64,000 bases of DNA from assembly GCA_964187785.1 (NCBI GenBank), contig OZ076409.1:7256001-7320000 (forward strand), in the 5' to 3' direction. This document shows positions 11,011-39,906 of the stretch, in pieces. A program made the position numbers and the translations under genes. The stretch is from Amphiscolops sp. MND2022. Lineage: Eukaryota. Positions within the stretch are counted from its first letter, which is position 1, and the number at the start of each line of letters is the position of its first letter. The notes under the pieces are model-generated. The model was not told the DNA's origin and made no database searches. It saw only the letters and a list, made by a program, of their open reading frames with translations.

Positions 11011-11525
11011 TCTTTTGGAGAATTCCGATGATTTTGCATTTCACTGCATTCATTGCAGATACACTGCGTTCACTCTTGCATTTTTGCTTCGGACAAAACT
11101 TTTATTATACTTCGGATCGAAATTTGGGAAACTTTTGTTGCGGAGACTTTTTGTCTAATAAAAACATGAAAATTCATTCCGCATCGGAATTTCGCTTCGT
11201 GAACAGTTTCTTTACCTTTGTGGTATCCTAGTGGAGCTATCAATGAAAAATTGTTTTTTTTTCAATATTTTTAAATCATTTGAAACTTTTGGACGTGGGG
11301 TGAAAAAAGGTTTTTCGGGAAAACATTCCACCATGAAAACGAACCTACATTATAAAATCTGTTTCAGGAAACTAAATGCATCCTTTAGAAAACGACAACT
11401 ACTGAGAATTTTGGTGGAAATGGTATTCAACAGCCTCAGATATGTGTCTTTTGTATAGTTTTGTATAAAATTATGGGCCAGTTATTCATCAAGTCATCAA
11501 ATTCCTCGTCAAGTTTCAGTTTAGT

Positions 11526-14103
11526 TTACACGATGTGATATTTTGTAGGCACAAAGGGCATTTTTGTGACGACAGCTTCGTAGGTTTTATTCCTCACTTG
11601 CACTCCGAGTTTTGTGCCAACTTTGGCCACACTCGAGTGCACGTATGCCATGGCGATGTTCTGCTTCAAGCTGGGAGAGGGACACCCACTAATTCAAGTC
11701 AGGGATGTTAGAATATCACCACTGCAAAAATAAGTATCGACTGTTTTCGGACCTCCGCCTCCTCCTTACTAAACCGCAATATAGTTCGGATATAACGTCA
11801 AAAGTTCGGATATAGCGCTGTACTCCGGATATTCCGAGGGGGACTTCAATAAAATCGAAGGGGGACCATTGGAAGACAAAAAAAATCCGGAAAAAAATCT
11901 AACAGCGTCACAGAAATTGAAAAGGGGGCCCTTAGTCTCATCCGGCTTTGTATGTTACGTTTAAAAAGTAAAAACTGAAAAGGGGGACACTTAGATGCGT
12001 TCAGTGAAAATATATGTGGAAAAATATTTTGGGAAAATTTTCAGACTTACTTGGAGCTACACAAGCATACGTACAATTACGTCTACGATATGGACAATCA
12101 ATATTGTGATTTTTAATGAAATCTACGAAAAGTGGAGTGCAATTTCTTAATATTTCAAAAACTTTTCAATACAACAATTTCAGTACAAAATTTTCAAGCA
12201 ATTATGGTCTGAGATTCAACTTAATCAAAATAAACAAGCCGGGAACGGCATAAGTCGGAGCCACATCTAAGGCTCAAAAATAGCAAAAGGACATCAAAGT
12301 CTCGAGAGGAGTTTCGAAACACTTTCGAAAAACGCAGACGACTAAACTGGCGGGCCGGTGCACGCTAGCGCGGGCCCCTGGTGCGCTAAAGGGGGACCCT
12401 TTCCGATTTTTGAACATCCATTCTGTCGCAAAACATCAAAAAATTGAAGGGGACTCATTGACAGAAAAATTTCGAAAAAGTCTCACAATTCCGAAAAAAA
12501 ACTGAAAAGGGGACACTTTAGTATTTTTCGGCATCTATTCTGCCGCGAAACATCAAAAAATTGAGGGGGGCCGTTTGGAGAAAAAATTCAAAAAGTCTCA
12601 CATTGCCAAAAAACTGAAGGGGATCCTTTGTCTCGCCCGGTATGTACAATGTATCTTACGCTGAAAAAAAGGAACAATTATTTTAGTTGAACTCCCTGAA
12701 GTGGACCATTTGCCCCCTTGAAATTTTGTAGAACCTGTAGAACAATTTTTGTAAGTTCATGTGGATTGAAAAAAGTCACCATTATAGTCGCGTTTCACTT
12801 CATGAAGCGTCGACTAAAAATCTTGATAGAAATTTAAGAGATCTTTGGGCTTCAAAAATGAAGCCGTCGCGAGAATTACTTTTGCAGTAACTACTTTTTC
12901 AGTGAAAAAGAATTTTTTTCTATCAGAAGTATCTCAAACATCCCTGGTCACAGTGCCAACTTTGGAAGACCCTCCAGCATCCAGCACTGCGGCACCCTGT
13001 CTAGCCGGAACCCCCTCCACTACCATCCCCACTCGCTTTTTCTGCACTGTGCTCTTGTCCTCGATCTGTCTCAAGATGATATCCGAGCCCGGGAACCCTC
13101 CGAGACGTCTTCGGTTTTTGCCGATCAGCCACAACAACGAAGCTTCGTTCGGAGTCGTCGTTTCGTCGATGTCGTTGCCATACAGACAAAGACCTGCCTC
13201 GAGTCGCAAACTGTCACGTGCGGCTAAACCAGCCAATCGGCATTCAGTATTTTTGTCGCTCGTCAACAGCTCGCATAACTCGGCTGCTTTGTCGTTAGCA
13301 ACTTGTATTTCGACACCGTCCTCGCCAGTGTAGCCACATCTGGTAACTCTGACGTCACCAATGCCAGCGATTGTTGTCATCCGGGTTGTCATGAAGGGCA
13401 TGGCTTTCATGTCGAAATCCACAAGTGGTTGCAATAAGTTCATCATTTTTGGACCCTGCACCGCCAGCAAAGATTTCTGGATGATTTGGACAGTAACATC
13501 TTTGCCACATTCACGGAACTCCATCTCTTGATTATGTAACAATGTCAAGTCCTTTTCTGCACATCCTGCGTTGGACACGACGTAAATGTCATCATTGGTG
13601 ATTTTGTTTATAATAAGGTCATCCACAATGGTTCCTTGTTTCGTGGTAAAAACAGTCAAACTTCCGCAATTGGGTTTCAAACCCTCAACGTCGCAAACTG
13701 TCAAACTTTCCAAAAACGGAACTGCGTCCTTGCCTTTTACGGAAGTTTGCAACATATGGGACACGTCGAAAATAACAACATCACTTCTGCAGAACAAGTG
13801 TGAGTTAAGAACCCCGTCTTTGTATTGAACTGGCATCGAATACCCGGCAAACGGGACCATTTTGCCGCCATTTTGCACGTGGTAGTCGTAAAGGGCTGTC
13901 TTTTTCAGCTTACCCGGCTCAGAAACGATGCCTCTGAAGGAAGATTTAGTAGTTTTGAAGGATGTTTGGGAACTGAGAATAGTGCAGAATCGCTCGGCAG
14001 CTTTGTTTCGGCACATTGTTTTCAGAGCCATTTTGGTGGACAGAAAGCAAGTAGGAGCCGTTCTGAGATATGACCGCGTTGACCGTGTTTGCCAACAAAA
14101 CAT
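11526..14103 (-). CDS. AMT: Second copy of AMT, 2 exons: 14103-12944 and 11688-11526
   Basis: Mirror of the 21536-24114 gene; three amino-acid differences in exon 1 in the ORF track (G/S, L/M, G/E). Confidence 0.92.
12233..12820 (-). mobile_element. Helentron-like family A copy nested in the AMT intron; mirror 22820-23407
   Basis: AACAAGCCGGGAACGGC...GTCGACTAAAAA termini. Confidence 0.7.
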
Positions 14104-14531
14104 ATCACGACTAACATTATCATGTTCTGCACATTGGCCAACTTAGCATTGGCAAACCAAAAGCCGTGGTACTGTATGGTGAACTTAAAGTTCAACATTT
14201 GATTTTGAATTTATCGTAAATACATCTTCGGCTAAATTACAATACTGCCCCCAACGGAATTAATTATGAACTTTGATATAATGCAGATAACCACTGTGGG
14301 AATATATGGCAACATGAATATTAAAGGGTGCATGGAAACATGTACGTTAAAGAATGCATGTTTCAGGAGCTAAGTGAAGTGTTCAGATATTGCAGAACTT
14401 TTGAAATTATTACGTGTTGAAATCATTAGGTGTTTGGATAGCTGTATGAAGTATCTGGATCTGAAAATAATTGTAGAAGCGTAAAATTGTAGAAAAATAA
14501 TTTTGCAGAAACCAATATCAATGCAAACATT

Positions 14532-15001
14532 AAACAAGCCAGGACCGTATCTAAGGCTCAAAAATAGCAAAAGGACTTCAATATGTCAAAGTATTGGTGA
14601 GTTGGGGACTCTTTTATGAAAAAAAATTGGAAAAAAAGTCCCACAATGCCGAAAAAACTGAAAGAGAGAACCTTTTGGGGGTTTTCAACATCCATTTTGT
14701 CGCAAAATAGCAAAAAAATTGAAGGGGGACCCTTTGGGGAAAAAATTTTCCGGAAAAAAAGTCTCACAATGCCGAAAAAAACTGAAAGGGGGGACCCTTT
14801 GGTCTCGCCCGGTATGGTATGTTACGCGGGAAAACAGGAAAAGCCTTTTTGGTTCAGTTCGCTAGGCCAAGTATTATAGTGCAATAATATTTTGTAGAAC
14901 TTTTGCAGAACTATTTTGGTCAGTTCAGGTGGTCTTAAAAAAACACTGACGAAAAGCCATGACTATAGTCGACTCTTTTCCAAAGAAAAGCGCCGACTAA
15001 A
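14532..15001 (-). mobile_element. Helentron-like family A copy, left arm only
   Basis: Family termini present; the mirrored site at ~21100-21110 is an empty T-run. Confidence 0.75.
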
Positions 15002-16229
15002 AATACATGACGGTCAGAGACACCTCAGTAAACAATGTCATTTTTAGTCGGCGCGGCGGTCCAAAAACAGGAGTTCTTTATGGAAACGTCCTAGGCATAT
15101 TTCGAATCTGCGCATTTTGAGCCTTAGATATAGCGCCGACTTCAGACGTTCCCGTTTTGTTACATTCAAAGACGCTCAACTCAAAAAGCTTCTCTAAGTT
15201 TTGAGTTATCTTTCTGCTTGATCTTAAATATAATGAGTTTCTCGAAACACCAGAAACTCGTCCAAAACAAAAACATCGACATCCAGAAACTCGAAAACAT
15301 AGATCCCGCCTTGGTGTTTTTCACTCGAATATTTTTCCGCACTATGAGACTTTTTTTGAAGTTTTTTGGACTCCACCAAAAGGTCTCCCCTTCATTTGCT
15401 TCGATATTTTCTAACACAATGGATGTCAAAAAATTCCAAAGGATCCCCCCTTTTACATTTTTTGGCACTGTGACACTGTTCAAAAATCTCCCAGGGACCC
15501 TTTAATTTTGTTCATATTTTGCAACCAAATGGAGTTTCACAAAACCCAAAGGGTCCCCCTTTTACAATCAATTTTGAGCCTTGGATATAGCGCCGACTTT
15601 GGCCGTTACCGGTTTGTTTCATTTTTAATTCAGAAGGAAGGTTGTTCCACAGAGGAACAATTTTTTGAAGCTGTTGCTCAAGTAGCTGCTATTAGTCAGT
15701 GAGTCATGAACTAAGCGATTTGACCTGTTGAGTGCTTTAAGTTTTGCCGTTGTTATTACCTGATGTGGGAAGGCCGGTAAAATTTGTTTTGACATTTCCT
15801 GAAATAAAGAACAGCATTTAGTAAAAAAACACACTGGTAAATTTTTGTATTGTAACTTTAGATTTAAAATTCAAATTGAAAAAAATGATTCACTTGCCAA
15901 AACTACCTTTAAATTGGTTGCAGAAAAGAGTCAGTAAACCTCGAATCTCTTTTCACTTGTGCCTGGTAACCAATTGACGCTTTTCACTTAAAGTTTTTTT
16001 TCCGAAATTGTTTAAATATTGCGTCTTTAACTTATTATTGTTCCTGCTGAATTGAGTGAAATAATCTTTTCTGCATTGTTGAGATACAAAACATCTTAGT
16101 GTTTGTGCATTTCATTTTTACAAATTTTTCCAACAATTTCTAACTGACGCTACTAGATGCTGGTGGGAAAAGGAAAGTATTTACCACCTGGCCTAAAGGT
16201 TAGCCGGTGTTTCTGTGAATAGTGACTGA

Positions 16230-18050
16230 CATTGAGAATAACTTCTCGCCTTTCGTATCGAAAAACTTTTGTTCAAGCACTCCTAGTTGACTTTCACAGG
16301 CGTTATGTATAATGTGGGATCAGAAATAGTTAGGGCAATGATACAGAAGGATTCCTACGGTTTCAATACGTTCACTGGAGTTAGAGTAGGCGCAATACCA
16401 CGAAGTGAAAACCCAAAAAGTTTTTCCTGGCGTGCAGGTGAATGGAATATGGCGGACTTGACTCTCGGAGAAGGCTGGCCAAATGTTTTGGGTCAGAACT
16501 CGACTTGGCAAAGTGGTCCATTGTTTCCGAAATATGACAAGATGAAATGGTTTTTAGTACAAAAAATCTACAAATTGAGTAACCTCCCAGAGGTTGCTAC
16601 AAGTAAAGTGTGCCCATTGGAACATCTAGTTCGACTGTCATAGTGGATTATGATGTCACGAGATTATCGAGTTTGAGCGCTTTAGTGGGGACAGTGGCTC
16701 GAATTTTATCTTTGAAGAATAAAAGAGTCCCACATCTTTGTTGCGTGCCCCAGATGTCAAAACAAATTCAGGACGCAAGGGAGTTTACTATTCGTAAAAA
16801 GCAAATCACTATAGCAAGCGAATTCGCCTCCGCTGTGAAGCAGGTCAATTTGAAAATCTCGGAGCCTTTTTTGATGACAGATGAGTATTAATGGTAGGGC
16901 GTAGGACCAACGAAACAGTTCCAATATTTCCCAAATCACATCTTGGTGACTTGATTATAAAAGAGTTTGACGAGAAGGACACGGAGGCGTTCTTCTGACA
17001 GCTAATAAAGTCAAAACAAAAATCTGTAGGTTAATTTTGCTGAAGGTTCTGAAAAATTTCGGCAATTTTCTAGCTGTCGAATAAATAATAAAGATAAAGC
17101 TGGACCGTTATTGGGACCACATTCCGATGAACAACTGAATCCTTAATTCCCACTCACAAACATTTGCCTGGATCTTTTCCGTCGACTCGATTTGAAGCTT
17201 GAAAGACAATCAAAGCAGTCATATACAATTCTCTTTTTTCGTGGGTGGTGAATTTGGATGTTGTAACTGATTGTTCAACTGAAGAATTCCTACAAACATT
17301 CAAACGATTTGTAGCTTTGGGGGAATACCCTGAAGTTGTACATTCCAATTCAGGTACACAATTAGTAGGAGCAAACAAGCAGTTACAAGGGAATTTCAAG
17401 ATGCTAAGTCAATACGTTCTCGAAAATGAATTCGGCTTGAAGAGAGTCAGATGGAAACTTGCACCTGGTTGTGCTCCATGGCGACAAGCGTGTGCTGAAA
17501 ACGTGATCATTTCGGTGAAGAAATGTTTATCCTTCGCAGTAGGAGGTCAAGTTTTGACACTGATCGAGCTTCAGACTATTCTCTCTGAAACAGCAAATTT
17601 GCTAGATGCCGACCGAACAGCCGTCATCCATCACGCCTCTATGATAGCTTTTACTTGTCACCCAATAGTTTCCTGTTAGGGCGTTCAATGAACCAGCCAA
17701 TGGCTTTCCATTCAACCAATGATCAACGTAGATAGAATTCAGTTGAAAGTACTCTCAGTGCGTTTGGAACAAGTGGCAGCAATCATTTCTACCGCAAATG
17801 GCATATTACAAGAAATGACAGATACAACATCCTAACATACAGCCAGGTGACGTTGTTTTTACTGGACGATCAAAACCTATACATGGGTTGTAGAAACTGG
17901 GAATAGTCGAAAAAAGTATACCCCCATACTTAATTAGAGACATTGAAGTAGATGTTGTAGCGAAAAGATGGCTCATAAACATTGCTGTCTAGGCCCATTC
18001 AGAAATCGGTACTAATTGTACCAAAGAATGCGCATGTTTGATGCCCCCGG
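16230..18050 (+). pseudogene. BEL/Pao LTR-retrotransposon pol relic (RNase H end and integrase)
   Basis: NMADLT...WQSGPLF; integrase-like VNLDVVTDCSTEEFLQTFKRFVA...SNSGTQLVGA...APWRQACAE..IISVKKCL...ELQTILSETANLL; many stops and frameshifts. Confidence 0.8.
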
Positions 18051-18403
18051 AGTGTATCGTTCATTTTTATGAATGACTAAAATTTTGAGTAATGTTTCAA
18101 TGTAATTTCAATATTTCATTTAAAAATCCGCAAATAATGTAGCCTTTGATGATATGTCATTGTGACTTGTGACATTCGACCAATTTTTCCGAAAAGTCAA
18201 ATTAGTTGATGATGTTGATCCGATGTCAGCAATGTAGTGAGTGATATTTACGTTCTTATTTCCAAATTCCTATACCTTTTTGCGAGTTTCCGTTTTTGTT
18301 TAGGTTTAAACTCAAAGCAATTGAAGTTTTACAAATCACTGCTGTAACTCCTAGGAAGACTTCCCCAGTGGTACACTTTTCATTTTTAAGAAACCTTTTT
18401 CCA

Positions 18404-18603
18404 NNNNNNNNNNNNNNNNNNNNNNNNNNNNNNNNNNNNNNNNNNNNNNNNNNNNNNNNNNNNNNNNNNNNNNNNNNNNNNNNNNNNNNNNNNNNNNNNN
18501 NNNNNNNNNNNNNNNNNNNNNNNNNNNNNNNNNNNNNNNNNNNNNNNNNNNNNNNNNNNNNNNNNNNNNNNNNNNNNNNNNNNNNNNNNNNNNNNNNNNN
18601 NNN
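18404..18603. other. Assembly gap (200 N)
   Basis: Run of exactly 200 N, a round size typical of scaffolding joins. Confidence 0.99.
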
Positions 18604-18894
18604 ATATTTTTTTATCTTATACAGAGATTCTCTCAAATAATCTTGACAATTAGGTTGAAGATTATAAAAGTTACTTACCTTGATTTAGAATCAAAAGAAG
18701 ACTAAATAGGAAGAAGATTAGTAAGAAGACTTCGAGAATTCTTCAGCTAATTTAAAACTAAGACAAATCGGATTGGGATTATGAATTTCGATCAAGATTT
18801 CAAGAAAGGTATTCAATAGGAGCAGGTTTCAACTAAGATTTCAAGAAAGGAGCAGGCTGGTCAACTTGTATTGGCAGTAACTAATCACACACTG

Positions 18895-19168
18895 ACAAAA
18901 CGGTTTGTTTATTTTACTCTGTAATCGAACAATTTCAGTCACGTGACCAATGCATCGTTCTCTCAAACACAGAGAAGAGTGAGATTGGCGCCAGCCCGTT
19001 TATGACGGCGCGTTGCTATGGTTACCGGCACAAAACGGTTTGTTTATTTTACTCTGTAATCGAACAATTTCAGTCACGTGACCAATGCCTCGTTCTCTCA
19101 AACACAGAGAAGAATAAGATTGGCGCCAGCCCATTTATGACGGTCGGCGCGTTGCTATAGTTACCGAC
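18895..19168. repeat. Tandem duplication, 2 x ~135 bp
   Basis: Units begin ACAAAACGGTTTGTTTATTTTAC at 18895 and 19030. Confidence 0.9.
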
Positions 19169-20127
19169 ACATTAAATTAGCACAAATTATGAAGTCAATA
19201 TTGATGACTATGATTAATTCTCTCTGAAACTCTAAAATCTTCAAATACAATTATCACTCATGATTATCAAAACGAATTAGCTGACTGATAAATTTAATTA
19301 ATAATTCATTTATAATAAGAATTAATAATTAATAACAAGGAATAATTCCTTTTTTAAACACTTTTTTTAAAACCTTTACTTAATTTATGACAATCAATTT
19401 TAGATATAGTGTAAAGTATTTCCACAGTCCTTATTTTGAACAATGTTATTTTCAGACAAGGTTTGTTTTATTCGTTAAACTGGTAAAAAAGTCTTGAGCT
19501 ATCAAAACTTCTGACCTAAGTTGACTTCTGAAGTTAATATTGATGACGTTCTTACAAATCAATACAAACAGTGCATTCTCTTAAACACAGAGAAGAGTGG
19601 TAACTTGTTTTACAAAGTTCGGACAAAATGCAATTTTGACAACTGAATATTGACTAAAAATGGCGCTTTTCTTCATTGATAAAATAAGCATATAAAAACT
19701 TAATTACAACACGCAATCTAATTGTTACAAAAATTTAGCACAAATTATGAAGTGATGATAACATTTTTACAAATCAATACTATAATTAATATAATTAAAT
19801 ATTAATTTACAAGTTCTTCGAATCACTAGATTAATTGACATATGCTGAACCAAGTTCGCATTTACAAATTCTTTAAATCACTAGATCAATTGACATATGC
19901 TGAACCAGGTTTGATATGCAGATTGAACAAATTGACTAAATTTGATTGAACTAAAAATTTTTAAGTTTGAGATAATTAATTAATTAAAACATTTAAATAG
20001 GCCAAATCCAAATTATGTGTGTCATTCATTGAAGTGTCCTTGATGTGTGCTGATGGGCGATGAACCAGAAGGAATACAAATGGTCCTAAAACATAAATAT
20101 TGTAAGTGCTGAATAAACAAGGTGTGG

Positions 20128-20600
20128 TACATATTTCGCGATATCTTGCAGTGGAATCCACTGTTGAAAACAGCAGCTGTCAAAAACTGCGGAATTCGCT
20201 TGCACAACAGCGGAATCCACTGGTGCTGTTGCGGAATCCACTGGTGCTGTTGCGGAATCCGCTGTCGCAGCAGTGGATTCCACTGTTTTTTCCTCTACAT
20301 TACGAAAGCTTGTCCTTGGAATCCGCTGTTTTTATGCTGTGTAATATTATGTGACCCCGGATTCCGGTACAGCGATTGCGGAATACACTGTTGTCTAATA
20401 TAATAATATATGCCTCTGAATTCCACCAAAAATTCAATGTAAAGAGATTTGTCCCCGGAATCCAGAAAAAATCGCAAGCGGAATCCGCTGCACATGTTTT
20501 AAAGTGTGTCTTTGAAATCCGTCATTTTAAACAGCGGATTCCAGGTCTGGTAGGTGCTACCTGCGGTTAGCAGTCAATTCCGCAGTTTTCAAAAAGTGTA
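20128..20600. repeat. Element built from repeated (GC)GGAATCC/GGATTCC motifs, probable MITE
   Basis: Many GCGGAATCC-like motifs in both orientations, a 21-bp tandem at ~20210-20260, weak terminal inverted similarity. Confidence 0.5.
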
Positions 20601-21535
20601 GGGATATGCGTCGTAATGGGCTCAAAAAGCGCAGATTCGAAATATGCGTAGGACGTTTTCATCAAGAACTCCTGTTTTCGGACCTCCGGCTCCTCTTACA
20701 AAAACGCATTATAGTTCGGATAAAACGTCAAAAGTTCGGATATAGCGCTTAACTCCGAATATTACGGGGGTGGACTTCAATAAAATCGGAGGGGGGACCC
20801 TTTGAAGACAAAAAACGTTTTGTAAAAAAAGTCTCAGAGCGCCAAAAAAAATTGAAAGGGGCCCTTTAGTCTTATCCGGTTTTGTATGTTACGTTTAAAA
20901 AGTAAAAACTGAAGGTGGGACGCTTTGCCATAACTTACATGCGTTTCCCAGGCATTCGTTTAGCTGAACAAACTGAAAAATATTTCGTCGCTTCGAGTCT
21001 GTTTCACAAAAACTAGTGACTGTAATAGTCGGGCTCTTTTATTATTAAAAGCGCCGACTAAAAATGACATTGTTTACTGAGGTGTCTCTGACTGTCATGT
21101 ATTTTTTTATGTTTGCATTGATATTGGTTTCTGCAAAATTATTTTTCTACAATTTTACGCTTCTACAATTACCTTTTGATCCAGATACTTCATACAGCTA
21201 TCCGAACACTTAATGATTTCAACACGTATTAGTTTCAAAAGTTCTGCAATATCTGAACACTTCACTTAGCTCCTGAAACATGCATTCTTTAACGTACATG
21301 TTTCCATGCACCCTTTATTATTCATGTTGCCATATATTCCCACAGTGGTTATCTGCATTATATCAAAGTTCATAATTAATTCCGTTGGGGGCAGTATTGT
21401 AATTTAGCCGAAGATGTATTTACGATAAATTCAAAATCAAATGTTGAACTTTAAGTTCACCATACAGTACCGCGGCTTTTGGTTTGCCAATGCTAAGTTG
21501 GCCAATGTGCAGAACATGATAATGTTAGTCGTGAT

Positions 21536-24114
21536 ATGTTTTGTTGGCAAACACGGTCAACGCGGTCATATCTCAGAACGGCTCCTACTTGCTTTCTGTC
21601 CACCAAAATGGCTCTGAAAACAATGTGCCGAAACAAAGCTGCCGAGCGATTCTGCACTATTCTCAGTTCCCAAACATCCTTCAAAACTACTAAATCTTCC
21701 TTCAGAAGCATCGTTTCTGAGCCGGGTAAGCTGAAAAAGACAGCCCTTTACGACTACCACGTGCAAAATGGCGGCAAAATGGTCCCGTTTGCAGGGTATT
21801 CGATGCCAGTTCAATACAAAGACGGGGTTCTTAACTCACACTTGTTCTGCAGAAGTGATGTTGTTATTTTCGACGTGTCCCATATGTTGCAAACTTCCGT
21901 AAAAGGCAAGGACGCAGTTCCGTTTTTGGAAAGTTTGACAGTTTGCGACGTTGAGGGTTTGAAACCCAATTGCGGAAGTTTGACTGTTTTTACCACGAAA
22001 CAAGGAACCATTGTGGATGACCTTATTATCAACAAAATCACCAATGACGATATTTACGTCGTGTCCAACGCAGGATGTGCAGAAAAGGATTTGACAATGT
22101 TACATAATCAAGAGATGGAGTTCCGTGAATGTGGCAAAGATGTTACAGTCCAAATCATCCAGAAGTCTTTGCTGGCGGTGCAGGGTCCAAAAATGATGAA
22201 CTTATTGCAACCACTTGTGGATTTCGACATGAAAGCCATGCCCTTCATGACAACCCGGATGACAACAATCGCTGGCATTGGTGACGTCAGAGTTACCAGA
22301 TGTGGCTACACTGGCGAGGACGGTGTCGAAATACAAGTTGCTAACGACAAAGCAGCCGAGTTATGCGAGCTGTTGACGAGCGACAAAAATACTGAATGCC
22401 GATTGGCTGGTTTAGCCGCACGTGACAGTTTGCGACTCGAGGCAGGTCTTTGTCTGTATGGCAACGACATCGACGAAACGACGACTCCGAACGAAGCTTC
22501 GTTGTTGTGGCTGATCGGCAAAAACCGAAGACGTCTCGGAGGGTTCCCGGGCTCGGATATCATCTTGAGACAGATCGAGGACAAGAGCACAGTGCAGAAA
22601 AAGCGAGTGGGGATGGTAGTGGAGGGGGTTCCGGCTAGACAGGGTGCCGCAGTGCTGGATGCTGAAGGGTCTTCCAAAGTTGGCACTGTGACCAGGGATG
22701 TTTGAGATACTTCTGATAGAAAAAAAATTCTTTTTCACTGAAAAAGTAGTTACTGCAAAAGTAATTCTCCCGACGGCTTCATTTTTGAAGCCCAAAGATC
22801 TCTTAAATTTCTATCAAGATTTTTAGTCGACGCTTCATGAAGTGAAACGCGACTATAATGGTGACTTTTTTCAATCCACATGAACTTACAAAAATTGTTC
22901 TACAGGTTCTACAAAATTTCAAGGGGGCAAATGGTCCACTTCAGGGAGTTCAACTAAAATAATTGTTCCTTTTTTTCAGCGTAAGATACATTGTACATAC
23001 CGGGCGAGACAAAGGATCCCCTTCAGTTTTTTGGCAATGTGAGACTTTTTGAATTTTTTCTCCAAACGGCCCCCCTCAATTTTTTGATGTTTCGCGGCAG
23101 AATAGATGTCGAAAAATACTAAAGTGTCCCCTTTTCAGTTTTTTTTCGGAATTGTGAGACTTTTTCGAAATTTTTCTCTCAATGAGTCCCCTTCAATTTT
23201 TTGATGTTTTGCGACAGAATGGATGTTCAAAAATCGGAAAGGGTCCCCCTTTAGCGCACCAGGGGCCCGCGCTAGCGTGCACCGGCCCGCCAGTTTAGTC
23301 GTCTGCGTTTTTCGAAAGTGTTTCGAAACTCCTCTCGAGACTTTGATGTCCTTTTGCTATTTTTGAGCCTTAGATGTGGCTCCGACTTATGCCGTTCCCG
23401 GCTTGTTTATTTTGATTAAGTTGAATCTCAGACCATAATTGCTTGAAAATTTTGTACTGAAATTGTTGTATTGAAAAGTTTTTGAAATATTAAGAAATTG
23501 CACTCCACTTTTCGTAGATTTCATTAAAAATCACAATATTGATTGTCCATATCGTAGACGTAATTGTACGTATGCTTGTGTAGCTCCAAGTAAGTCTGAA
23601 AATTTTCCCAAAATATTTTTCCACATATATTTTCACTGAACGCATCTAAGTGTCCCCCTTTTCAGTTTTTACTTTTTAAACGTAACATACAAAGCCGGAT
23701 GAGACTAAGGGCTTCCTTTTCAATTTCTGTGACGCTGTTAGATTTTTTTCCGGATTTTTTTTGTCTTCCAATGGTCCCCCTTCGATTTTATTGAAGTCCC
23801 CCTCGGAATATCCGGAGTACAGCGCTATATCCGAACTTTTGACGTTATATCCGAACTATATTGCGGTTTAGTAAGGAGGAGGCGGAGGTCCGAAAACAGT
23901 CGATACTTATTTTTGCAGTGGTGATATTCTAACATCCCTGACTTGAATTAGTGGGTGTCCCTCTCCCAGCTTGAAGCAGAACATCGCCATGGCATACGTG
24001 CACTCGAGTGTGGCCAAAGTTGGCACAAAACTCGGAGTGCAAGTGAGGAATAAAACCTACGAAGCTGTCGTCACAAAAATGCCCTTTGTGCCTACAAAAT
24101 ATCACATCGTGTAA
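21536..24114 (+). CDS. AMT: Mitochondrial aminomethyltransferase (glycine cleavage T protein), 2 exons: 21536-22695 and 23952-24114, ~440 aa
   Basis: GCV-T motifs [44 protein letters not shown] and [20 protein letters not shown]. The missing C-terminus ([17 protein letters not shown]...[14 protein letters not shown]) lies 1.26 kb downstream and joins in phase 2. The N-terminus is R/S/T-rich and presequence-like. The donor site is non-canonical (see findings). Confidence 0.92.
22693..23940. mobile_element. hAT-like non-autonomous element forming the AMT intron (mirror copy 11700-12946)
   Basis: TIRs CAGGGATGTT (22693-22702) and AACATCCCTG (23931-23940). Flanked by 8-mers ACTGTGAC and ACTTGAAT in the positions expected of an 8-bp TSD. 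Contains nested Helentron-like repeats. Confidence 0.7.
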
Positions 24115-27100
24115 ACTAAACTGAAACTTGACGAGGAATTTGATGACTTGATGAATAACTGGCCCATAATTTTATACAAAACTATACAAAAGACACATAT
24201 CTGAGGCTGTTGAATACCATTTCCACCAAAATTCTCAGTAGTTGTCGTTTTCTAAAGGATGCATTTAGTTTCCTGAAACAGATTTTATAATGTAGGTTCG
24301 TTTTCATGGTGGAATGTTTTCCCGAAAAACCTTTTTTCACCCCACGTCCAAAAGTTTCAAATGATTTAAAAATATTGAAAAAAAAAACAATTTTTCATTG
24401 ATAGCTCCACTAGGATACCACAAAGGTAAAGAAACTGTTCACGAAGCGAAATTCCGATGCGGAATGAATTTTCATGTTTTTATTAGACAAAAAGTCTTAG
24501 CAACAAAAGTTTCCCAAATTTCGATCCGAAGTATAATAAAAGTTTTGTCCGAAGCAAAAATGCAAGAGTGAACGCAGTGTAAAAATCATCGGAATTCTCC
24601 AAAAGAATCTTGCATTTAAGTGGAAACCTTGATAAGAAAGAGCGCGAAGAATATATAGGATCTTGCAGGACCTGGCCAAGAAATTCGAGAGAAGAGCTAA
24701 CATATGTGAATGAAAAGAAACAAAAACTGTCGCCAACTGCGGCTTAGTGTCGGACCTATTATAGGCCTATGCCACAGCCGCTCATGCTACCCACCAAGCA
24801 ATCACATCCTGAAATCAATACTTTGTGTTGCAAAATAACCACCACTTCAAAGAATTAGAGGGAAGCTGGTAATGCGAACAATGTTTGTTTTACGAGTTCT
24901 TTATTTTCTTGAAACGCTTGATAAAATTCTCACTAAGATTCCTTTTAGCAACTTCGAGTGTTTTTTAAGAGTGTGCAAGAATATGAAAGTTCTTGGCAAG
25001 AGTTTCAAGATACTTGGCACTACGAAATCACCGGGTATGTCAGTGAGTTTCGAGAATTCAAGTCTTGCGCTTTTCCATAGGAAAGAGTGCCCAGCTCATA
25101 CTGTGCAAGTCTTTTGTCTTTTTTAACAAAAAGAAATGTCTTTTTTACAATTGTCTAGCCAAAGAGCCTGTGGTTCACCTTTTGAAATTTCTAAATGTTT
25201 ACATAAATGAGGATATTACGATGAAGAAAAGGGTCTTCCGTTTGGATGTTTTTGGCGTTTAAATGTTTTGAAGTTTTGAGCCAAGAGAAAGGCTTTTTCA
25301 GCCCAAAAAATTATATAAATCCTTATTGTACAAAAATAACTTTGTCATTTGTCCTAGAATTTTCAGAGAAAAGTGTTTGTAGATTTAAAAAACTTGGCGG
25401 TTTTGAATCTGGAGCGGGGCGCTGCCTTAGGACGTTCGTCTTGTTTGAAACTTTTTGTTCAAAATCATAAACTCAGTTGTTCGTTAAAAATCGGCGCTCC
25501 TTTTCATTCTGCTGGAAGTTAGGATTTTACTACGTTTCCTTGAAACGCTGCTTTAGAGCATCCTCACCACAAATTGGTTATAAAGCGCAAACATTTGTTT
25601 TTGTTCAGAGAATTTTTTAACGTTTTGGAATACAAAAAATTAAAAAAAATTTTTGCCACAAACACAAAGGGGAACTCTTTACTGTTTCAGTTTCGTACAT
25701 CACGTGAAAATGAGGAAAATTGAACGGGAAGACCCTTTGACCCTTATTATTTTCCGCCCCCACAAATTATTGTGTAGGGGAGGAAAATTATATTCTGTGT
25801 TGCGTTTTTTTTCCAAAATATGCCGAAGCTCCATATTCTCCATACTAGTTGCTATTTGAGGTACAATGGCTCAATTGGTAGTGCGTCTGCCTAAATAGTT
25901 ATCGGTAATTGTGCAATTATTGCTATTATTGACTTTTAGTAATGATACAGAAAAAGTTTCGGACCATCTTTCTCATCGCTCCCACCGCAGATACACAATG
26001 TTTCTTAACCCCCTCCCAACACGAATTTGTTTCGACACTTGAAGCAAAAATTCCCCGGAATTTTCGATATTTTTTTGACAAAAAAAGCAAAAATTCACCT
26101 CCGGGACAAGCCTAAATTGTATAGTAAAGCTCCGAATACAATGCAAATTTTCTCCGTCATAAATTAAAATGGCTTGTATGGTGTGAATCACCATACATCG
26201 GTACAATGGTTCAGGACTGAAAATATACCATTGCTCGAGAAGGGTCTTGATGAATTGATTGAATGCAATTAACTCTTTGACTCAGTTTTGGTGTCAAAAT
26301 TAAACTTGTTAAGATCTCTATTTTAATAATTGAATAATTGAATAATTCAAATAAGCTCTTTTCTCGAACGCTGTTAATTTTTATCAATACGACGAAATTT
26401 CCGACGACGAAATTTCCGACGACGAAATTTCCGACGGCGATATTTCCGCCTCCCGTTGGATCGAACCCGTGCTGATGAGTAACATTTTTACCGGGATATA
26501 TCCCGGTGCTTAAGGGGCGCCTTATTGCTTAGATATTAGGCTAGAATATTGTTCAGAGTGGAAATTGTAATCTTATCAGTTCAGTCTTGTAGTGAATCAG
26601 TGGAACTAGCAGTTCAGAGATTTTGACTTTAATTAACTAAAAAAACCCAAGTTGATCCACACCGCATTGCCAAATTTTCGTTCGAATAACATTCCTCGGG
26701 ATTGTCTCAATCGTCATATCATCATGGTAAACATACAGCGTGATTGCGTAAAGTAGTCATTTACTGTATGATGATCACTACGCGTAACGCCAAATCACAC
26801 TGTGTAACAAGCAAAACACGTAACGCGTCTTTGAACCAATAACGCGTTTTTATTGGCTGTTAATCGAACTAGCAAGATCTTGCTAGTTCGTTGCGGCATA
26901 TGTATCGTAATGATAGTTATACGAAATCGATGACACTTGAAAGATTCGTGCAGCAACTGTCAGATAGGTTAGATATCTGAGTGATGCTACGATTCGTACT
27001 AAGAATGGTAATACAAAAAGCATGCCTTTCAAGATTTCCGTGAAACTAATACTTGTAGCGAGACAGGTTTCATTATGTATTCAAGTTCAGTTTTCAACAA

Positions 27101-27637
27101 TGGTTTTTGAGATCCTGTTGTAACAAGCAGATCAGATTTCAGGAGTTGGAAACAATTTTCGACGACTTATGCAGTCGTGCCTTTTTCTCCAGACCTTTCA
27201 AGGAAAATTTCAAATTTCTCGAAAACTGTCCATACAATTTTGATAAAATTTAGCACAGTCATTCTACACCCAAAGGGGCCCCTGCGTGCACAATGACATC
27301 AAAATCGTGTGACTGGGATCTGAGAAACAGCTAAAATTAGTCCAAATATGACCAAATGACAGTAAAGTACGTAATTTGTTTTTTCAATGTTTTAATCCGT
27401 TTCCGACTCCTTTATACCACACATGCATGCGGATCTGGGTGCATATAGTAAAAATTTTATTTCAATGGTAAAATTTTAATTCAATGGTAGAGCAAAAAAT
27501 CTAATCTGTTGTTACTTTTTGGTTTAGATCAACTGAAATTTGAAAACATTTAGTCGTTGTGGGATGATGAATTAGTTCACATCAAAATAGAATTTATTTG
27601 TGAAATCAATCAATCAAGGCGTGACATTTTTAGTTCG

Positions 27638-30600
27638 TTAGCTTCCAAAGTATTTTCCAAGGGTATCTTTCCGGGAAATCATGGATACTCCTTTTATCGC
27701 TTTTGGGTCTTCTTTGGTCCGGGAAGGCAGCAAACAGACCACGTGATAATCATTGTAAAGGTCGTTAAACGTGTAATTCTGGGGAATTTCTTCCATCAGC
27801 GGGAAAGGACAATGGACGCCGGGGTTTTTAATCAACATCAGTAGTTTGACTAATTGAGGAGAAATTTTGAATTTTTCTAGTTTACTCTCCACGCCGGAAA
27901 AATCTGCCACTTCGATGTAATCTTTAGGGTGCTCGGCTTGGAATTTTCCCGTGAGTCCCAGTTTTTTGTATCTTCTGCAACGAAATGAAAATCATTAGAA
28001 CTGTAAGGTCATAAAATAGTGGAAAATTTTTGGAGAATTTTCTGAGAGTTATGTTACAATGTTCACAACTAAAAAGTCACTTTTGAGATTTTTCGGCATT
28101 TTGAGACCAATAAAATGTTTCATAGAAACGACATAAGTCGGCGACCCCATCAATATATTATTAAGACATCAATTTTGTTTATAACCTCAAAGCACAGCTA
28201 ACTACTTGACTTTTTACGAAAGATTAATCATCCGAGAGCCTCATACTTTGCAATAGTAAGCCCTAACCACAACGATATCCTGGTTTTTAATTCGATGAAA
28301 ATTTTTTTATAAAGCCTTGTCTAAAAAGCGTGGAAATGCTTTTAAATGACCCGTCTCTGTTAGTTATCTGAAAACGTGAAGTAAATAGAATTTCATTGGC
28401 CAATTTTTGCCATTTACAGTGACATAATGTAGCTCTGCGTTCTGGGTTTATTTATTCATTGGCATATTTTTACATTCCACATCAAAGTCTTCGAAATATT
28501 GGTTTATTTCATAACTGCAAGTTGTGATTCCCTAATTATATGTCCCCTATAAATAAATGTGTTGCAATCGGTAGAGATTTGAAGGTTTGAATAACGGTTC
28601 TTTTTCTCAAAAGTTTAACTTTTATATAGTTCTGGTCATCAACAGGTACCAGAGTCATAATCTTCAATGACACTTCTGTATTTTTTGGACAAAATTACAG
28701 AATTATACCCCGGTCATGTGCAGTACATTTCAAGTGAATTGGGGAAAACTAATTTTCGAAATCAAGGTGTGCTCATGAGGACTGCCAAAATTTCATACTC
28801 ACTGAGTGGTGCCTTCGAAAATCAATCGATCCATGAGTGCACATATTGCGGCAAACAGGTTCAGAGTGACTATTTCACCCTCCTCTTTAGGCGCGTGAAC
28901 GAACTGAAGGACGTTTTCGATCAAATTGGGCTCTGGGAGCTGCACAGAACCTTTCTTGCCCAAATACACAATCTCCATCAATGTCTGCAAATGCTAAACA
29001 GAGAGTGCTTATAGAGGAAAATATACCTCTTGCAAATCAAATTCAACATTCTCACATTCAAGTTCAACACAAGAAAATTCAAGTTCAACGTGAAAACTTT
29101 CTAAATCAACGCGGATTTTTTCAACGGTTGCTCACATTAGAGTTTGACAAATCACTTCAAATTCGTCATTTCCGTAGCAAGTCGTAGTCACTCGAAAAAA
29201 AATCAAATCTTGAAATGCCCGGAGACAGATACCAAAAAGTGTCATTAAATGACAAAAAAGACCCAGAGAAGCTCATATGAAGTAAGTCAATCATGTTTCT
29301 GAACAAAAAACTTCTTTTTCACGCATCTTTTTTTTTCTAGTGGGTTTTGACGCATCTTTTTTTTCACTGGTGAAGATTTTATTCAATTGACCCAGTTTTG
29401 GGAGTCAACAGAACGACTGCCTACTGTATTGTGAACTTGATCATTTGGAAAAATGATGATGAAGCATTTGCATAAAAAACGAACAAAAATTTCTGAAAAA
29501 ATTGTGAAAAGTAGATTAAACCAGAGCCGCATATGCGGTAAAGGAGTCGCCTAGGTCTTTTTCCTTCTGACTTGGTCGAATCCCAGTCATACCAATTTAT
29601 TGAAATTGCACATATAGGACCATATTATGATGCTGAACGACTGTCGAAAATTTCGTTCGAATCGAATGGAGAGTTTTGAGAAAATCGAAAAAAAGTCGAA
29701 AAATGGTTGTTTTTTGGCCATTTTTGGGCTAACTTTTGCTATCTTTCTCAGATCCCAGTCATACGAACTTGATTTCATTGTGCACACAGGGGCCCCTTTG
29801 GGTGTAGAATGACTGTGCAAAATTTTATTAAAATCGTATAGACAGTTTGAGAAAGTTGAAATTATCATTGAAAGGTCGGGAGAAAAAAACGACACGATTG
29901 CATGAGTAGTCGAAAGTTTTTTCCGAATCCGAAAAGTTGCGCAAAAATACAGAAAAATACCACCTCGAAATTCGAGAACATATTCAGGATTTTGTTTAGG
30001 TTTTTTCTAGGGAAGTGTTTTATAAGTTTGACAATCTTTAAAGTTTTTTGAAAATGAAAAAAAATTAAACAGTTGAAAAACTGTTTAAGGTGAAAAATTG
30101 TTGTTATAAATAATTTGAAAAAAAAAACCACGGAATAGTTGGCATAATATAACTTTTCCTGTTAACAGATACATAGCAATCAGAAAAAATTATCCAATTA
30201 TTCCATGGATTGAAAAAATTAGGTAACTAACTTGTGCTTCGATCGGAAAAGACTTGAGTTTTGTCCCTTTGATGAGATTAGTGAAGTTATCAAGATGATT
30301 CTGGCTGACCATACACCTGTTTTCCAGATACTGGCAGGGTGTCATGGCTGAAATAATCCAGAAGTGAACCCAAAAATTGGATATTTTCCTAAAATTCGAC
30401 CATTTCATCAGTTTCATGCTTTCAATGGACAGGGTATTTAACTTTGGGCCTACGAAACAATGCGCTTAGTATTTGGGTGAGATTTATCGGAAACATTTCA
30501 AGAACAATATCAGCGAAGTCAGTGATGTCCCTTTTTATTTTCCTTTAAACATCGATCCTTTAAAAAGATTTTCCTTTAAAGGATCCTTTTTCCTTTAAAC

Positions 30601-31423
30601 AAAATAAAAAGGAAATTTGACAGCAATTATAAATACGAATAGTGCGGTGAGAAAATTATTCTATGAATCTATTCTGGATTTTTTGGTGCAGCTGCTTACC
30701 ATAATGGGTCGAACTAATCGATTTGGTTTTTTGCTGATGTTTTTTGGTGCGACACGTATTAATCCAAGCAAAATATCTCTAATATGGTGCAGAATGACTG
30801 TAGAAAATTTCGTTCGAATCATTTGGAGCTAAATATTATAGAAAATCGTATGAACAGTTCATGAGAAATTTGAATTTTCATTGAAAGGTCGGGAGAAAAA
30901 ATCGACACTATTGCATAAGTAGTCGAAAATTTTTCCGACTCCTAATAATTCCGACAAAATCAGACACGCGTTTTCAGCATAGTAATTCAATGCAATTCCA
31001 AATTTCAGCCAGTCAGATTACAACATAAATATTCACTGAGTGAAGTAAGTTCAAGCTAAGTTCATATCATCAAAATTGGGAGGATAGCGAATATGAAACT
31101 CAAACAGATTGAAACTCAAAATTTTTTTGTATCAAAGAACCAAGTTGAAAATAAAACTGGATTACTTTCGAGGGTTTTGTAGTCAATCGGGAGCTCAAAG
31201 CGTGTGCCAGTCATAATTCCAGACAGAGAAGTTTTCTGCTTCACCTCCAGCTGAAACAAAAAATTGCTCAACATTTTTCAGGAACTGAAAAAACTCCGTA
31301 TAAAAAAGAAGTTTTTTATCAAAAAAAAGTAAAAGTGACTGAAGATAGATTAATTGTAGAAGGCTATGGGTCCCAATTACTAACTGGAGTTTGAGTTTCT
31401 TTCGGTACCAGTTGCTTCCTTGC
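27638..31423 (-). CDS. Mirror copy of the unknown multi-exon gene
   Basis: Same exon set. Has TTA (30441-30439) where the left copy has TGA. One internal exon still does not read through cleanly, so intactness is uncertain. Confidence 0.5.
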
Positions 31424-33938
31424 CTGCACAGAAAAAAAAATTTTTACTAACGTCAATGCAAAATTTAGAAAGCCCCAAGTTTGAAGCCAGGCAGGGATAC
31501 GTTTACAAAAAACATTTGATGGAAATCAAATTATGTTCAGTGTTTTTAGTCGGCGCCTTTTCCTTTTAAGGAAAAATGCCCGACTATAGCAGTGACCTTT
31601 TTTTTCTTCAGACTACAATCCTCACACTGATCGGTCCACTTTTTATTTAGGCCAAGTCCGGCCGATGCAAACTTAGTCCAAAGGGTCCCCTCTTTCATTT
31701 TTTACTTTTTCAAGGAAACCTACAAAACCGGACGTACCTAAAGGTCCCCCCTTTGAATTTTTCCGGCTCTGTGCAATTTTTTATCGAAAATTTTTTAGTG
31801 TCCCCAATGGGTCCACCCTTCGAGTTTTTTGATATTTTGCATCAAAATTTATGTTAAAAAATCCAAAAGTGTCCCTCTTCTACATTTTTCGACACTATGC
31901 GACATTTTTCGAAAGAAAAAATTTCATAAATTTCAAATTTTTTTCCCAATAAAAATGTTTTGCGCTTTTTGAGCCTCAAATATAGCGCCGACTTTAGACG
32001 TTCTCGTGTTGTTTTCTGAAAATCTTTCGGCAACCAGCACCAATGGAGAAAAAGAAGGAATTTTAAGATTAACCACTGGCGATGAGGTCATGTATGTGTT
32101 CAGCAAGTTAGCAGTTCCTAAGTTACAAGGTGCCAATTTTGCAAACTTTTGCATACAACAGGTTTGAAACTATAATGGTTCAATTTAAAACAAGCCGGAA
32201 ACGGCTCAAATCGGACTTCTTAAAGATGCAAGTTAAATGCAAACATCAAACGAGACGGGAACGTCTAAAAACCGCGCTATATCGAAGGCTCAAAAAGCGC
32301 AAAGTTTTTAAAATTGTAAAAAGGGGGACCCTTTGGGTTTTTTGGAAGTCCAGTCTGTTGCAAAGCATCAAAAAATTTGAAGGGGGACCCCTTGGAGGCA
32401 GAAAAAAGACGAAAAAAAGTCCCACAGTGCCGGAAAAAAATTCAAAGAGGGGACCCTATAGTCTCGTCCGGTTTTGTATCTTACGTTAAAATGGAATAAA
32501 TGAAAGGGGGGCCTTTTTTGGTTGCGTTTCTGGTTGCCGGTCCAGTAGTTTAGTAGTTCTGTAACAAGTGTCCACTACGCATACATTCTGTTGCATAGTC
32601 ACTGTAATAGTCGGGCTTTTTTCAAAAGAAAACACGCCGACTAAAAACACCCCAATTGATGAAAAAAGTTGTTAAAATCGTACAGTGCCTAAAAACCTTA
32701 CGATGGGACGTTTGAAGCTTGAAAAACCTCTTTTTGGAAGTTGAAACACAAGAAAAACGGAACGAAGAACATGCTGTGAAATAGATTTTTTCGGAGATCC
32801 TTTGACACGCCAAGGGTTTGAAAACAAATATATTTAGTGCTAGGCAAACATCGAACCAACGTCAGTCTGCTTAGGAAGCGCCCACCCTAACTGTCTGGCG
32901 GCGTGAACAAAAACTCCGTAAAGTGGACCATTCGCATAGACATTAGGTGGTCTTACGAATAAAACTAATCACTGCAATAATCAGGTCCGTTTCCTTATGA
33001 AATGCGCCGACTACAAAATATATCCAGTATTTTGACGTTATATTTAGATTTTATCACTATAATTTGGTTGCATCCGGAAACAGGTTTTCGGTAGTTTATT
33101 TCGGAAACACAACCACATTTGAGACGTTTTGAACCTGCGTCTCTCGGCTTTTTACTTCAACGCTTTAACAACTAGGCCATCGATTCGCAGATCTGGTGCG
33201 GAATCCAAAATAACTCTGAAAAAAATGTGTCACTGTGAAAGTCTCGCTCGTTGCAAAAAAGTAGTTTTCAAAAGCGTCAACTGAAGCGTAGACTGATAGT
33301 AAAAAAATACTACCAAGAACACCAGTACCAGTTAGATTTTTTTGAAATTTGTACCTTTAAAAAAAGTTCCAATTGTTACATCGGAAAGGTCCATTGGTCT
33401 ACTTGCTGTACGTAGGATGTACACCAATGCGTTGTCACCGCATTATGTTCGATTTCCATTGGTCCACTGTTGAGAATTCGATGGGACATAACTGGGTTAT
33501 TAGTAAAAATAAATGGGATTCGTATTTTTGATAGCAATCATTAAAAATGCAAATATTCTAGGGGAAACGCACTGAAACAAGTTTTTTGATTAAATTTTCT
33601 AGCGTGTACAGAGAAAAATGCACCAGACAAAAGCGCCACCCAAACTTGCTTTGCGAGCAGACTTTGCGCACCTCTTACTAAACCTAATTGAACATGTTTA
33701 ATGAATCAAAAACCCACTGGTAAGGTCAGGTTTGACATTTTGTAACTTAACAAGCTAGTTTTGGCATTTGAGAACAAAATAATTTCTTAATGAAGAAATT
33801 TGTCAATCCGTTGTTTCAACAGGAAAAACTGAATAATGTTCAATAAGAGTGAGAATTTTGATGGGGGTGAAGAATTGGCAATTACCCAGTCGGCTTTGAT
33901 TGGCGACTTCAGACTTTAGCGGTCTTGACTGGTGGGCT

Positions 33939-39864: not shown

Positions 39865-39906
<42 letters not shown>

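Follow-up and report, generated by a model that had tools for sequence, protein, structure and literature searches.

A hAT-like transposon probably kept as a GG-AG intron in an acoel aminomethyltransferase gene

Where the introns of animals come from is a long-standing question, and introns made by transposons are known mostly from protists; the main text of the survey of introners (PMC9860276) records them in only two animal groups, and acoel, Xenacoelomorpha and Hofstenia are absent from it. Two features that matter here are already described in the available passages of earlier reports, namely splice sites lying in terminal repeats (Fritillaria, Micromonas, dinoflagellates) and GA or GG donors (Eurytemora). 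Searches of the literature on acoel introns, intron gain and introners, covering main texts, found no report of non-canonical or transposon-derived acoel introns. The passages available from the Symsagittifera and Praesagittifera genome papers hold no such introns, and those of the latter state that introns made purely of transposable elements were not found. Here we analyse a window of 64,000 nt (the whole stretch of DNA studied, Amphiscolops sp. MND2022, contig OZ076409.1), part of a 1.07-Gb eukaryotic assembly, which encodes an aminomethyltransferase (AMT, the glycine-cleavage T protein) that is otherwise intronless and is cut by an insert of 1256 nt. The insert is probably best explained as a hAT-like element that entered the AMT exon and has been kept since as a spliceosomal intron. 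What is new is best described as an Ac/Ds-like terminus that supplies G[G/A] donors, within a lineage new at phylum level whose genome is otherwise canonical. A preliminary description of this stretch had proposed a transposon turned intron; what it observed in the sequence is confirmed, and our sequence comparisons support its interpretation.

The AMT locus and the ends of the insert

The coordinates of the features are collected in Table 1. Left unspliced, the frame of exon 1 adds RDV and halts at TGA 22703-22705. The joined exons encode a protein of 416 residues, collinear with its relatives and holding both AMT domains (the folate-binding GCV_T and the GCV_T_C barrel). The nearest named protein is the AMT of the acoel Symsagittifera roscoffensis (66% identity), and the protein of another relative reaches 83%. 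As exon 2 covers positions 34-79 of the 80 in the GCV_T_C profile (Pfam), the insertion splits the C-terminal barrel domain; the last 45-48 residues of exon 1 on their own gave zero Pfam matches. The join ACCAG/TGGG (22695 to 23952; the slash marks a junction) is the sole one giving back the conserved VTSGCPSP, as had been claimed. In an alignment, all six full-length relatives (6/6) read VTSG[C/S]PSP without a gap across the junction, so a functional message must lack exactly 1256 nt. Where the cuts fall is ambiguous: AG..TT, GG..TA and GG..AG yield identical mRNA, a fourth register, CA..AT, alters ACC to the synonymous ACT, and none of the four is canonical. GG..AG is the register that also works for J and H, two introns of dynein genes described below. 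The branch-point-like TTCTAAC (23927-23933, where it had been placed before) overlaps the inner part of the right repeat, with a candidate branch A at 23932, 19 nt upstream of the acceptor, and the spacer 23941-23951 contains the first AG beyond that repeat. From these signals we infer that the RNA would be spliced by the spliceosome at AG/GG...AG, with the branch at 23932.

Three other routes were considered and rejected. U12-type introns have the 5' consensus /[AG]TATCCTT and a TCCTTAAC branch site, and neither the intron start (GGATGTTT) nor TTCTAAC fits them. Spliced-leader trans-splicing at the acceptor would leave an exon 2 that by itself has neither a start nor a function, and somatic DNA excision has neither precedent nor evidence.

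Table 1. Coordinates of the AMT gene copies, the inferred intron and its component parts within the window.
Feature	Position	Strand	Description
AMT exon 1	21608..22695	+	ORF, 362 codons + 2 nt; Pfam GCV_T (PF01571) 1.4e-79
Inferred AMT intron	22696..23951	+	1256 nt, GG...AG; sole removal restoring VTSGCPSP gap-free
AMT exon 2	23952..24114	+	1 nt + 53 codons + TAA; Pfam GCV_T_C (PF08669) 1.2e-13
Left terminal inverted repeat CAGGGATGTTTGA	22693..22705	+	holds the inferred donor CAG/GGATGT
Right terminal inverted repeat TCTAACATCCCTG	23928..23940	+	inner part overlaps TTCTAAC
Spacer ACTTGAATTAG	23941..23951	+	11 nt from right repeat to acceptor; presumed decayed 8-bp duplication + displaced exonic YAG
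Subterminal 15-nt motif, two tandem copies (ACTGAAAAAGTAGTT, ACTGCAAAAGTAATT)	22737..22766	+	
Subterminal motif, third, inverted copy	23905..23919	-	near right end
Nested repeat A	22819..23408	+	590 nt, full-length copy of a discrete high-copy element
Nested repeat B	23648..23900	+	253 nt; further copy inverted at 20672-20925
Second AMT copy	11526..14031	-	exon 1 12944-14031; intron 11689-12943 (1255 nt); exon 2 11526-11688
Palindrome	1..35037		arms 1-14537 and 21102-35037, 98.2-98.9% identical

The inferred intron does end in inverted repeats, as first described, and these pair at 12 of 13 positions, the outer 10 perfectly; the final CAG of exon 1 (22693-22695) doubles as the first three bases of the left one. 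Such a match at the junctions (40-nt windows) arose in 0.03-0.06% of shuffles and in 0.2-0.3% of window pairs of the same spacing, a chance of ~3e-4 to 3e-3; for a perfect run of at least 10 the values are 0.055% and 0.26%. As an RNA duplex the repeats reach -27.0 kcal/mol vs -14.8 +/- 3.3 in shuffles (z ~ -3.7), and 1 of 1000 shuffles attains that value. The repeat starts in agreement with the YARNG form of hAT ends, and its first 8 nt (CAGGGATG) are those of the Ac/Ds terminus, (C/T)AGGGATGAAA, in the accessible part of PMC3260210, which also records 8-bp target duplications for Ac/Ds. The removed 1256 nt exceed the repeat-bounded 1248 nt by 8 nt, the length of such a duplication. Matches to the hAT dimerisation domain (PF05699) above the Pfam cut-off number at least 150 in the genome, among 2215 candidates, some of them in open frames of 600-700 codons (up to 697). 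These data support the identification of the insert as a putative non-autonomous hAT-like DNA transposon with Ac/Ds-like ends. Of the hAT origin suggested before, the terminus and the 8-nt excess have stood; the termini are what point to hAT membership. The accompanying proposal that the 11 nt before the acceptor are an 8-bp duplication plus CAG holds in length, the duplication not being recognisable in the sequence, and the triplet may have been TAG, a synonymous variant.

The repeat-bounded 1248 nt consist of 126 unique nt on the left, repeat A (590), 239 unique nt in the middle, repeat B (253) and 40 unique nt on the right. A and B have sharp termini, shared with copies amid unrelated flanks at dozens of other loci, and appear to be later passengers in an element of ~405 nt. 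The subterminal 15-nt motif has nine matches in the window, six of them inside the two intron copies, which is weak evidence as the pattern was built from these same sites.

Both gene copies carry the insertion, the GG and the inverted repeat, as had been noted, the second lying in a region (11440-14238, minus strand) 99.4% identical to the first. Each has an intact 416-codon ORF; exon 2 shows 0 differences across 163 nt, and the exon differences amount to 7 synonymous vs 3 non-synonymous, where 22.5% synonymous would be expected at random (binomial P = 1.8e-3). A functional AMT gene elsewhere had been raised as a counter-indication; in a search of the assembly for a third gene, both genome matches (2/2) were the window copies. 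The copies lie in the arms of a palindrome whose spacer is non-palindromic and holds a 200-N gap (18404-18603); an arm extends to the first base of the window, so its length is at least 14.5 kb. Because they sit in the arms of a 14.5-kb palindrome around such a gap, the two AMT copies may be two haplotypes set head to head and not paralogs. The palindrome itself resembles two haplotypes fused head to head, a true palindrome being the alternative.

Residence time, dynein counterparts and the GG donor

Concerning the age of the insert, the nested repeats were compared with their families. Repeat A has a median identity of 77% to 19 other full-length copies, which are 81% identical among themselves, and repeat B 83% to 14 other copies, likewise 83% among themselves. 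The nested copies are as diverged as the family members are from one another, which dates their entry to ~0.1 substitutions/site ago; this is our own estimate, assuming a star-like family history and with the best matches as the copies compared. A simulated neutral ORF of 1251 nt, subjected to substitutions only at 0.10/site, stayed open in 0.7% of cases. The old nested repeats, the intact frames and the synonymous excess together support the view that the insert would be a long-resident intron in a working gene and not a fresh knock-out. In three relatives (83%, 73% and 69% identical) the AMT ORF continues uninterrupted across the insertion site, and Pfam finds one contiguous GCV_T_C domain in both relatives scanned. 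Since these frames cross the site, the AMT intron was gained in this lineage, in line with the comparison of relatives called for earlier. The protein call of the 83%-identical relative overruns its expected stop with five W in ~50 residues, as if TGA were read as Trp; this W-rich tail is probably a prediction artefact of a low-GC eukaryotic contig.

Repeat A is an element of ~590 nt that always runs from TTTTTAGTCGGCGC... to ...GCCGTTCCCGGCTTGTT; its 3' end is hairpin-like, and tandem units of 117 nt lie inside it. It is very abundant, occupying ~10 other sites in the window (e.g., 2575-2717, 14604-14942 and 38111-38610), and each of the three non-GT dynein/AMT introns inspected contains it. 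The 5' end of repeat A also lies ~40 nt inside a canonical dynein intron (donor TTC/GTTAGT, G000:C1 15528630-15528700), a further sign of how often repeat A occupies introns.

Splice sites were surveyed in two further gene sets. GLDC, the partner enzyme, is present in the genome with well-formed exons, and GT stands in 7/7 of its donors and AG in 6/6 of its acceptors. The dynein sample comprised 50 adjacent AAA_6-domain exon pairs from ~16 genes, taken blind; one pair was an in-frame loop, which left 49 introns. Among these, 45 are GT-AG (43 by script and 2 by eye), one is GC-AG, one has no G*-AG solution and two, J and H, lack a canonical solution and are built like that of AMT. Intron J (G000:C11, minus strand, 6167177/6165236, 1940 nt) reads GTCCAATCAG/GAATGCTTAT ... 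ATAAACATCCCTG + 13 nt + CAG/CACCAT. Intron H (G000:C6, 66020624/66022934, 2309 nt) reads GCCGGACCAG/GGATGTTGAAAT ... CCTTCAACAATCGCTG + 9 nt + AAG/CCGGTA. The J join yields QLSNQHHYDYGMR (QLSNQHHYDYG), spaced as in two paralogs that have no interruption there (QLTKQVHYDFGLR and QLSKQDHYDFGLR), and the H join yields GGGPAGPAGTGKTET, in agreement with a paralog that is spliced canonically (GGSPAGPAGTGKTET); at both sites the dynein paralogs are uninterrupted or canonically spliced elsewhere.

Both introns show the AMT arrangement, that is, exonic CAG/G[G/A]ATG..., an inverted copy of the same 10-mer at the opposite end, 9-13 nt and then AG. After the exonic CAG, J starts with GAATGCTT and H with GGATGTTG, and their right-end words are AACATCCCTG and AACAATCGCTG; the AACATCCCTG of the AMT right repeat thus recurs 13 nt before the J acceptor, and the 11-mer AACATCCCTGA is identical between AMT and J. 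All six arms share CAGGGATGTT with 0-2 changes each, and the repeats match at 12/13, 11/13 and ~12/13 positions across the three introns. Past the shared ten bases the two arms of each intron are still alike (TTWGA.ATA in AMT, TTAT in J, GTTGAA in H), which argues for true terminal repeats of sub-families and not for convergent signals. Apart from the widespread repeats A and B and the 11-nt end, J and AMT have no interior sequence in common. AG/G[G/A]A...AG is the sole register common to all three, a yAAC stands in the right arm 18-21 nt upstream of each acceptor, and the acceptor is in 3/3 the first AG past the arm. In J, the displaced exonic CAG is itself visible as the acceptor. The exchange of CAG envisaged in the preliminary description, with the CAG of the element replacing the exonic one, recurs in these two dynein introns, which were found without looking for them.

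The dynein intron without a G*-AG solution (750 nt, G000:C7 65115866-65116615) reads AATCCAG/CTACATGTTCC ... GGCTTGTTGTAG/GTTACC. Its registers are CT..AG, GC..TA and AG..GT, and the sole GT-AG alternative swaps the conserved G of NPGY for ATC. At its 5' end it is like the CAG..ATGTT terminus, while the repeat A terminus plus GTAG makes up the 3' end.

The GG donor itself is original to the element: G 22697 (+2) is mirrored by C 23936 in the right arm, and a recent GT-to-GG change would have broken the repeat. CAG/GGATGT is complementary to U1 at 7 of 9 positions, vs 5-7 for the seven GLDC donors and 3-4 for the adjacent GT sites. In Eurytemora affinis, every functional GA or GG donor follows an exonic AG, and nearly all of them have A at +3 (PMC5714493). 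Both are present in 3/3 of our introns (CAG/GGA, CAG/GAA and CAG/GGA in the AMT, J and H set). Most of the 20 U1 5' ends that were read are the ordinary ATACTTACCTG; three (3/20) are ATACTAACCTG, which would pair with GTTAGT donors, and two more are ATATTTAAACCTG. At 50 GT donors the +3 base is T in 21, A in 18, C in 8 and G in 3, the commonest donor being GTTAGT-like. The branch consensus is ACTAAC, and GTTAGT is its reverse complement, so an inverted repeat with one motif carries the other.

The steps may be put together as follows. A non-autonomous, Ac/Ds-ended transposon of ~400 bp would have entered the single AMT coding exon immediately upstream of an exonic YAG, and its first CAG would have substituted for the displaced exonic triplet. 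The GGATGT that follows would serve as the 5' splice site, pairing with U1 at 7/9 despite the G at +2. The inner TCTAAC of the right repeat (mirror of GTTWGA) would provide the branch point; more generally, the mirror of an element end CAG-GGATGTT is AACATCC-CTG, which, preceded by TCT, ATA or TTC, would give a branch-like yAAC. The displaced host YAG, first AG past the right repeat, would become the acceptor. Landing just before an exonic NAG would thereby let element and duplication be removed scarlessly, with the protein unchanged. Later uptake of two unrelated repeats may have grown the AMT intron to 1256 nt, and the same type of element would have made at least two more introns in dynein heavy-chain genes.

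Competing explanations and genomic context

Several points weigh against this reconstruction. Junction usage was deduced from the genomic sequence. In well-studied animals, introns with G at +2 are hardly ever spliced: human introns with a GG donor number 32 out of 222,263 (PMC5714493). In a search for a compensating U1 none of 20 5' ends (from 23 matches) pairs with G at +2. The 8-mers flanking the AMT insert (ACTGTGAC vs ACTTGAAT) agree at 4/8, with P(>=4 of 8) ~0.11, and AMT, J and H hold no target duplication recognisable by sequence; the '8 + 3' fit of the spacer is seen in AMT only (11 nt), J (13 nt) and H (9 nt) fitting it only via later indels, without a clear repeat. Intron J offers an in-frame canonical alternative, a GT at +13 that adds 4 residues. 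The age argument would be lost if the composite had moved with A and B already inside. The two copies differ at 6/1256 nt in the intron vs 9/466 nt of exon further upstream, which hints at recombination, so that some synonymous differences may predate the insertion. In addition, the relatives' proteins appear to be plain ORF calls (internal-Met starts, the W-rich tail in one).

The element family raises doubts of the same kind. None of the hAT-domain matches in the genome is linked to the AMT element terminus. The left 126 nt and right 40 nt match nothing else in the genome; searches with the complete element, with 130 nt from its left end and with 81 nt from its right end returned both AMT copies and the nested repeats only. 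A 21-mer search at up to 3 mismatches gave 64 matches vs 400 for the control, the recurrent near-match being internal to an unrelated repeat. The repeat 13-mer and 11-mer are not enriched either (47 vs 70 and 556 vs 1112 in controls). There is hence no detectable element family beyond the three introns AMT, J and H. A genome-wide search for further introns with inverted ends and 8-bp duplications had been suggested: J and H have the ends, the duplications are unrecognisable and the terminal words are not enriched. Two such introns among 49 dynein introns is also more than expected of a small family; the explanation is either decay of the ends in most members, a preference for dynein genes or luck in the sampling.

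A stronger version of the proposal, which we regard as rather doubtful, adds that the major spliceosome accepts G[G/A] donors as such, that a hAT-like, low-copy 'introner' supplies both donor and mirrored branch site, and that the pairing of its ends is selected, presenting the weak donor to the branch region and offsetting the U1 mismatch at +2. If this were true, the symmetry of terminal repeats would be a general route for splice-ready DNA transposons, and a transposon origin could be offered for the GA/GG introns of copepod and tunicate.

It is unlikely that the insert is removed from RNA without ordinary G*-AG spliceosomal chemistry, its paired repeats aligning the ends and other registers or modified or other machinery doing the rest. 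The duplex is strong (-27 kcal/mol, z ~ -3.7) and would mask donor and branch site from snRNAs, the repeats have been kept at 12/13, 11/13 and ~12/13 though the flanking duplications have decayed, and the register is ambiguous in each of the three introns; CAG/CTG pairing in euglenids and transposon-repeat intron ends in Fritillaria are precedents (PMC11282704, in the part available). However, G[G/A]...AG is the only register the three introns have in common, and exonic AG, A at +3, U1 complementarity, a yAAC at 18-21 nt and the first AG as acceptor are what a spliceosome needs, in a genome where 46/49 dynein introns are GT-AG or GC-AG.

A gene-disrupting transposon allele, with AMT cut at TGA 22703-22705 and non-functional or dispensable, is decidedly unlikely. 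The insertion is in both copies or haplotypes, there is no other AMT gene, and GLDC is retained; exon 2 is intact, identical in both copies and, vs the 83% relative, alike at ~45/53 residues (by eye), about like the rest of the protein. Old nested repeats and a decayed duplication speak for a long residence in which a neutral ORF would have closed, and two dynein genes would need the same precise frame-restoring break. What such an allele would explain is the non-canonical donor, the automatic ORF call of the second copy, which stops at RDV, and an intron less diverged between copies than the upstream exon, like a young allele.

Very unlikely, too, is the use of canonical sites with a tolerated deletion in the protein. 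Two in-frame GT-AG options are on offer. Joining GT 22669 to TCTCCCAG/ at 23969, a strong acceptor preceded by a good pyrimidine tract, would cost 15 residues, and joining GT 22700 to AG 23976 or 23979 would replace 9-10 residues by RD. These two GT sites match U1 at 3 and 4 of 9 positions vs 7 for GG, and the residues that would be lost are those best conserved within the barrel domain among all aligned relatives, and still perfectly conserved here. The same solution fails for intron H, where the phase of the GT within the repeat does not fit that of the acceptor.

Finally, an old ordinary intron with coincidentally complementary ends and a donor lately changed from GT to GG is highly improbable: CAG/GTATGT, one base off, would be an ideal donor, but the repeat has a chance of 3e-4 to 3e-3, its +2 G has a counterpart in the right arm, the 10-mer recurs at the ends of two unrelated dynein introns and the relatives' ORFs lack the intron.

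If the reading of a captured hAT-like element is correct, the AMT locus would keep the full path of an intron gain legible, from an intronless ancestor through an element placed before an exonic YAG to an element CAG as exon end and a host AG as acceptor. Transposon-driven intron gain would be placed in Acoela, a lineage that serves as a proxy for early bilaterians, and G[G/A] donors, which otherwise stand unexplained in one copepod and some tunicates, would be tied to transposon ends. Gene predictors limited to GT and GC donors would truncate such genes, as in the ORF call ending in RDV.

Regarding the rest of the window, no other intron-bearing genes were found in it, its 28 long ORFs giving retrotransposon domains and weak matches only. 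A scan of 20000-25000 with Rfam and for tRNA yielded a single sub-threshold miRNA match and no tRNA. An LTR-retrotransposon-like stretch occupies 46900-54750 (minus strand), with long open frames for protease, dUTPase, reverse transcriptase, RNase H and integrase (Pfam), and direct repeats 97.5% identical lie at 39183-40718 and 54188-55699.

Comparison with known transposon-derived and non-canonical introns

The introns of Fritillaria borealis derived from miniature inverted-repeat transposable elements (Henriet et al., 2019, as given in the available parts of bioRxiv 10.1101/2025.08.15.670264 and PMC11282704) are alike in that exonic insertions of non-autonomous DNA transposons are treated as introns and removed, with splice sites that coincide with the terminal inverted repeats and at lineage-specific positions. 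They differ in that <10% of Fritillaria introns are GT-AG, AG-AC and AG-AT being the commonest, whereas in our acoel sample 45/49 are GT-AG and the odd ones, a tiny family, fit G[G/A]-AG; Fritillaria is, besides, a tunicate. Eurytemora affinis (Robertson, 2017, PMC5714493) shares with the present introns the G[A/G] donors, the obligate exonic AG and the A at +3, the need for the introns to obtain full-length conserved proteins, species-specific positions and an ordinary U1 5' end. Its GA and GG donors, however, make up ~12% of introns vs 2/49 here, and transposon ends are undescribed in that paper.

In the introners of Micromonas, Aureococcus and others (Gozashti et al., 2022, PMC9860276; PMC11282704; passages available), the element gives one splice site and the target region the other, and the gain is scarless, as proposed for AMT. 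Those introners come as many near-identical intron copies with GT/GC-AG borders, whereas here ~10-13 nt per end are shared among three cases. Of the marks of an introner, similar sequence throughout many introns is not seen here, and element ends that coincide with intron ends, with a splice site borrowed from the target, are present in 3/3.

Ds insertions in maize exons can reportedly be spliced imprecisely, a finding attributed to Wessler and co-workers. Maize Ds1 and Ds-like 4 (Du et al., 2011, PMC3260210, accessible part) have the terminus (C/T)AGGGATG... and an 8-bp duplication, and Ds elements of ~400 bp share only terminal and a few subterminal repeats while carrying filler or later insertions, much as the AMT insert does. 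The bases past position 8 differ (TTT vs AAA), and the present host is an animal. Lastly, the nonconventional introns of euglenids (PMC11282704, same limits) resemble ours in non-canonical borders, CAG/CTG inverted repeats near the ends and duplication-like repeats at the junctions. They differ in pairing at +4..+6 and -8..-6, without a requirement for AG or a branch site, whereas in AMT the CAG is exonic and all spliceosomal signals are present.

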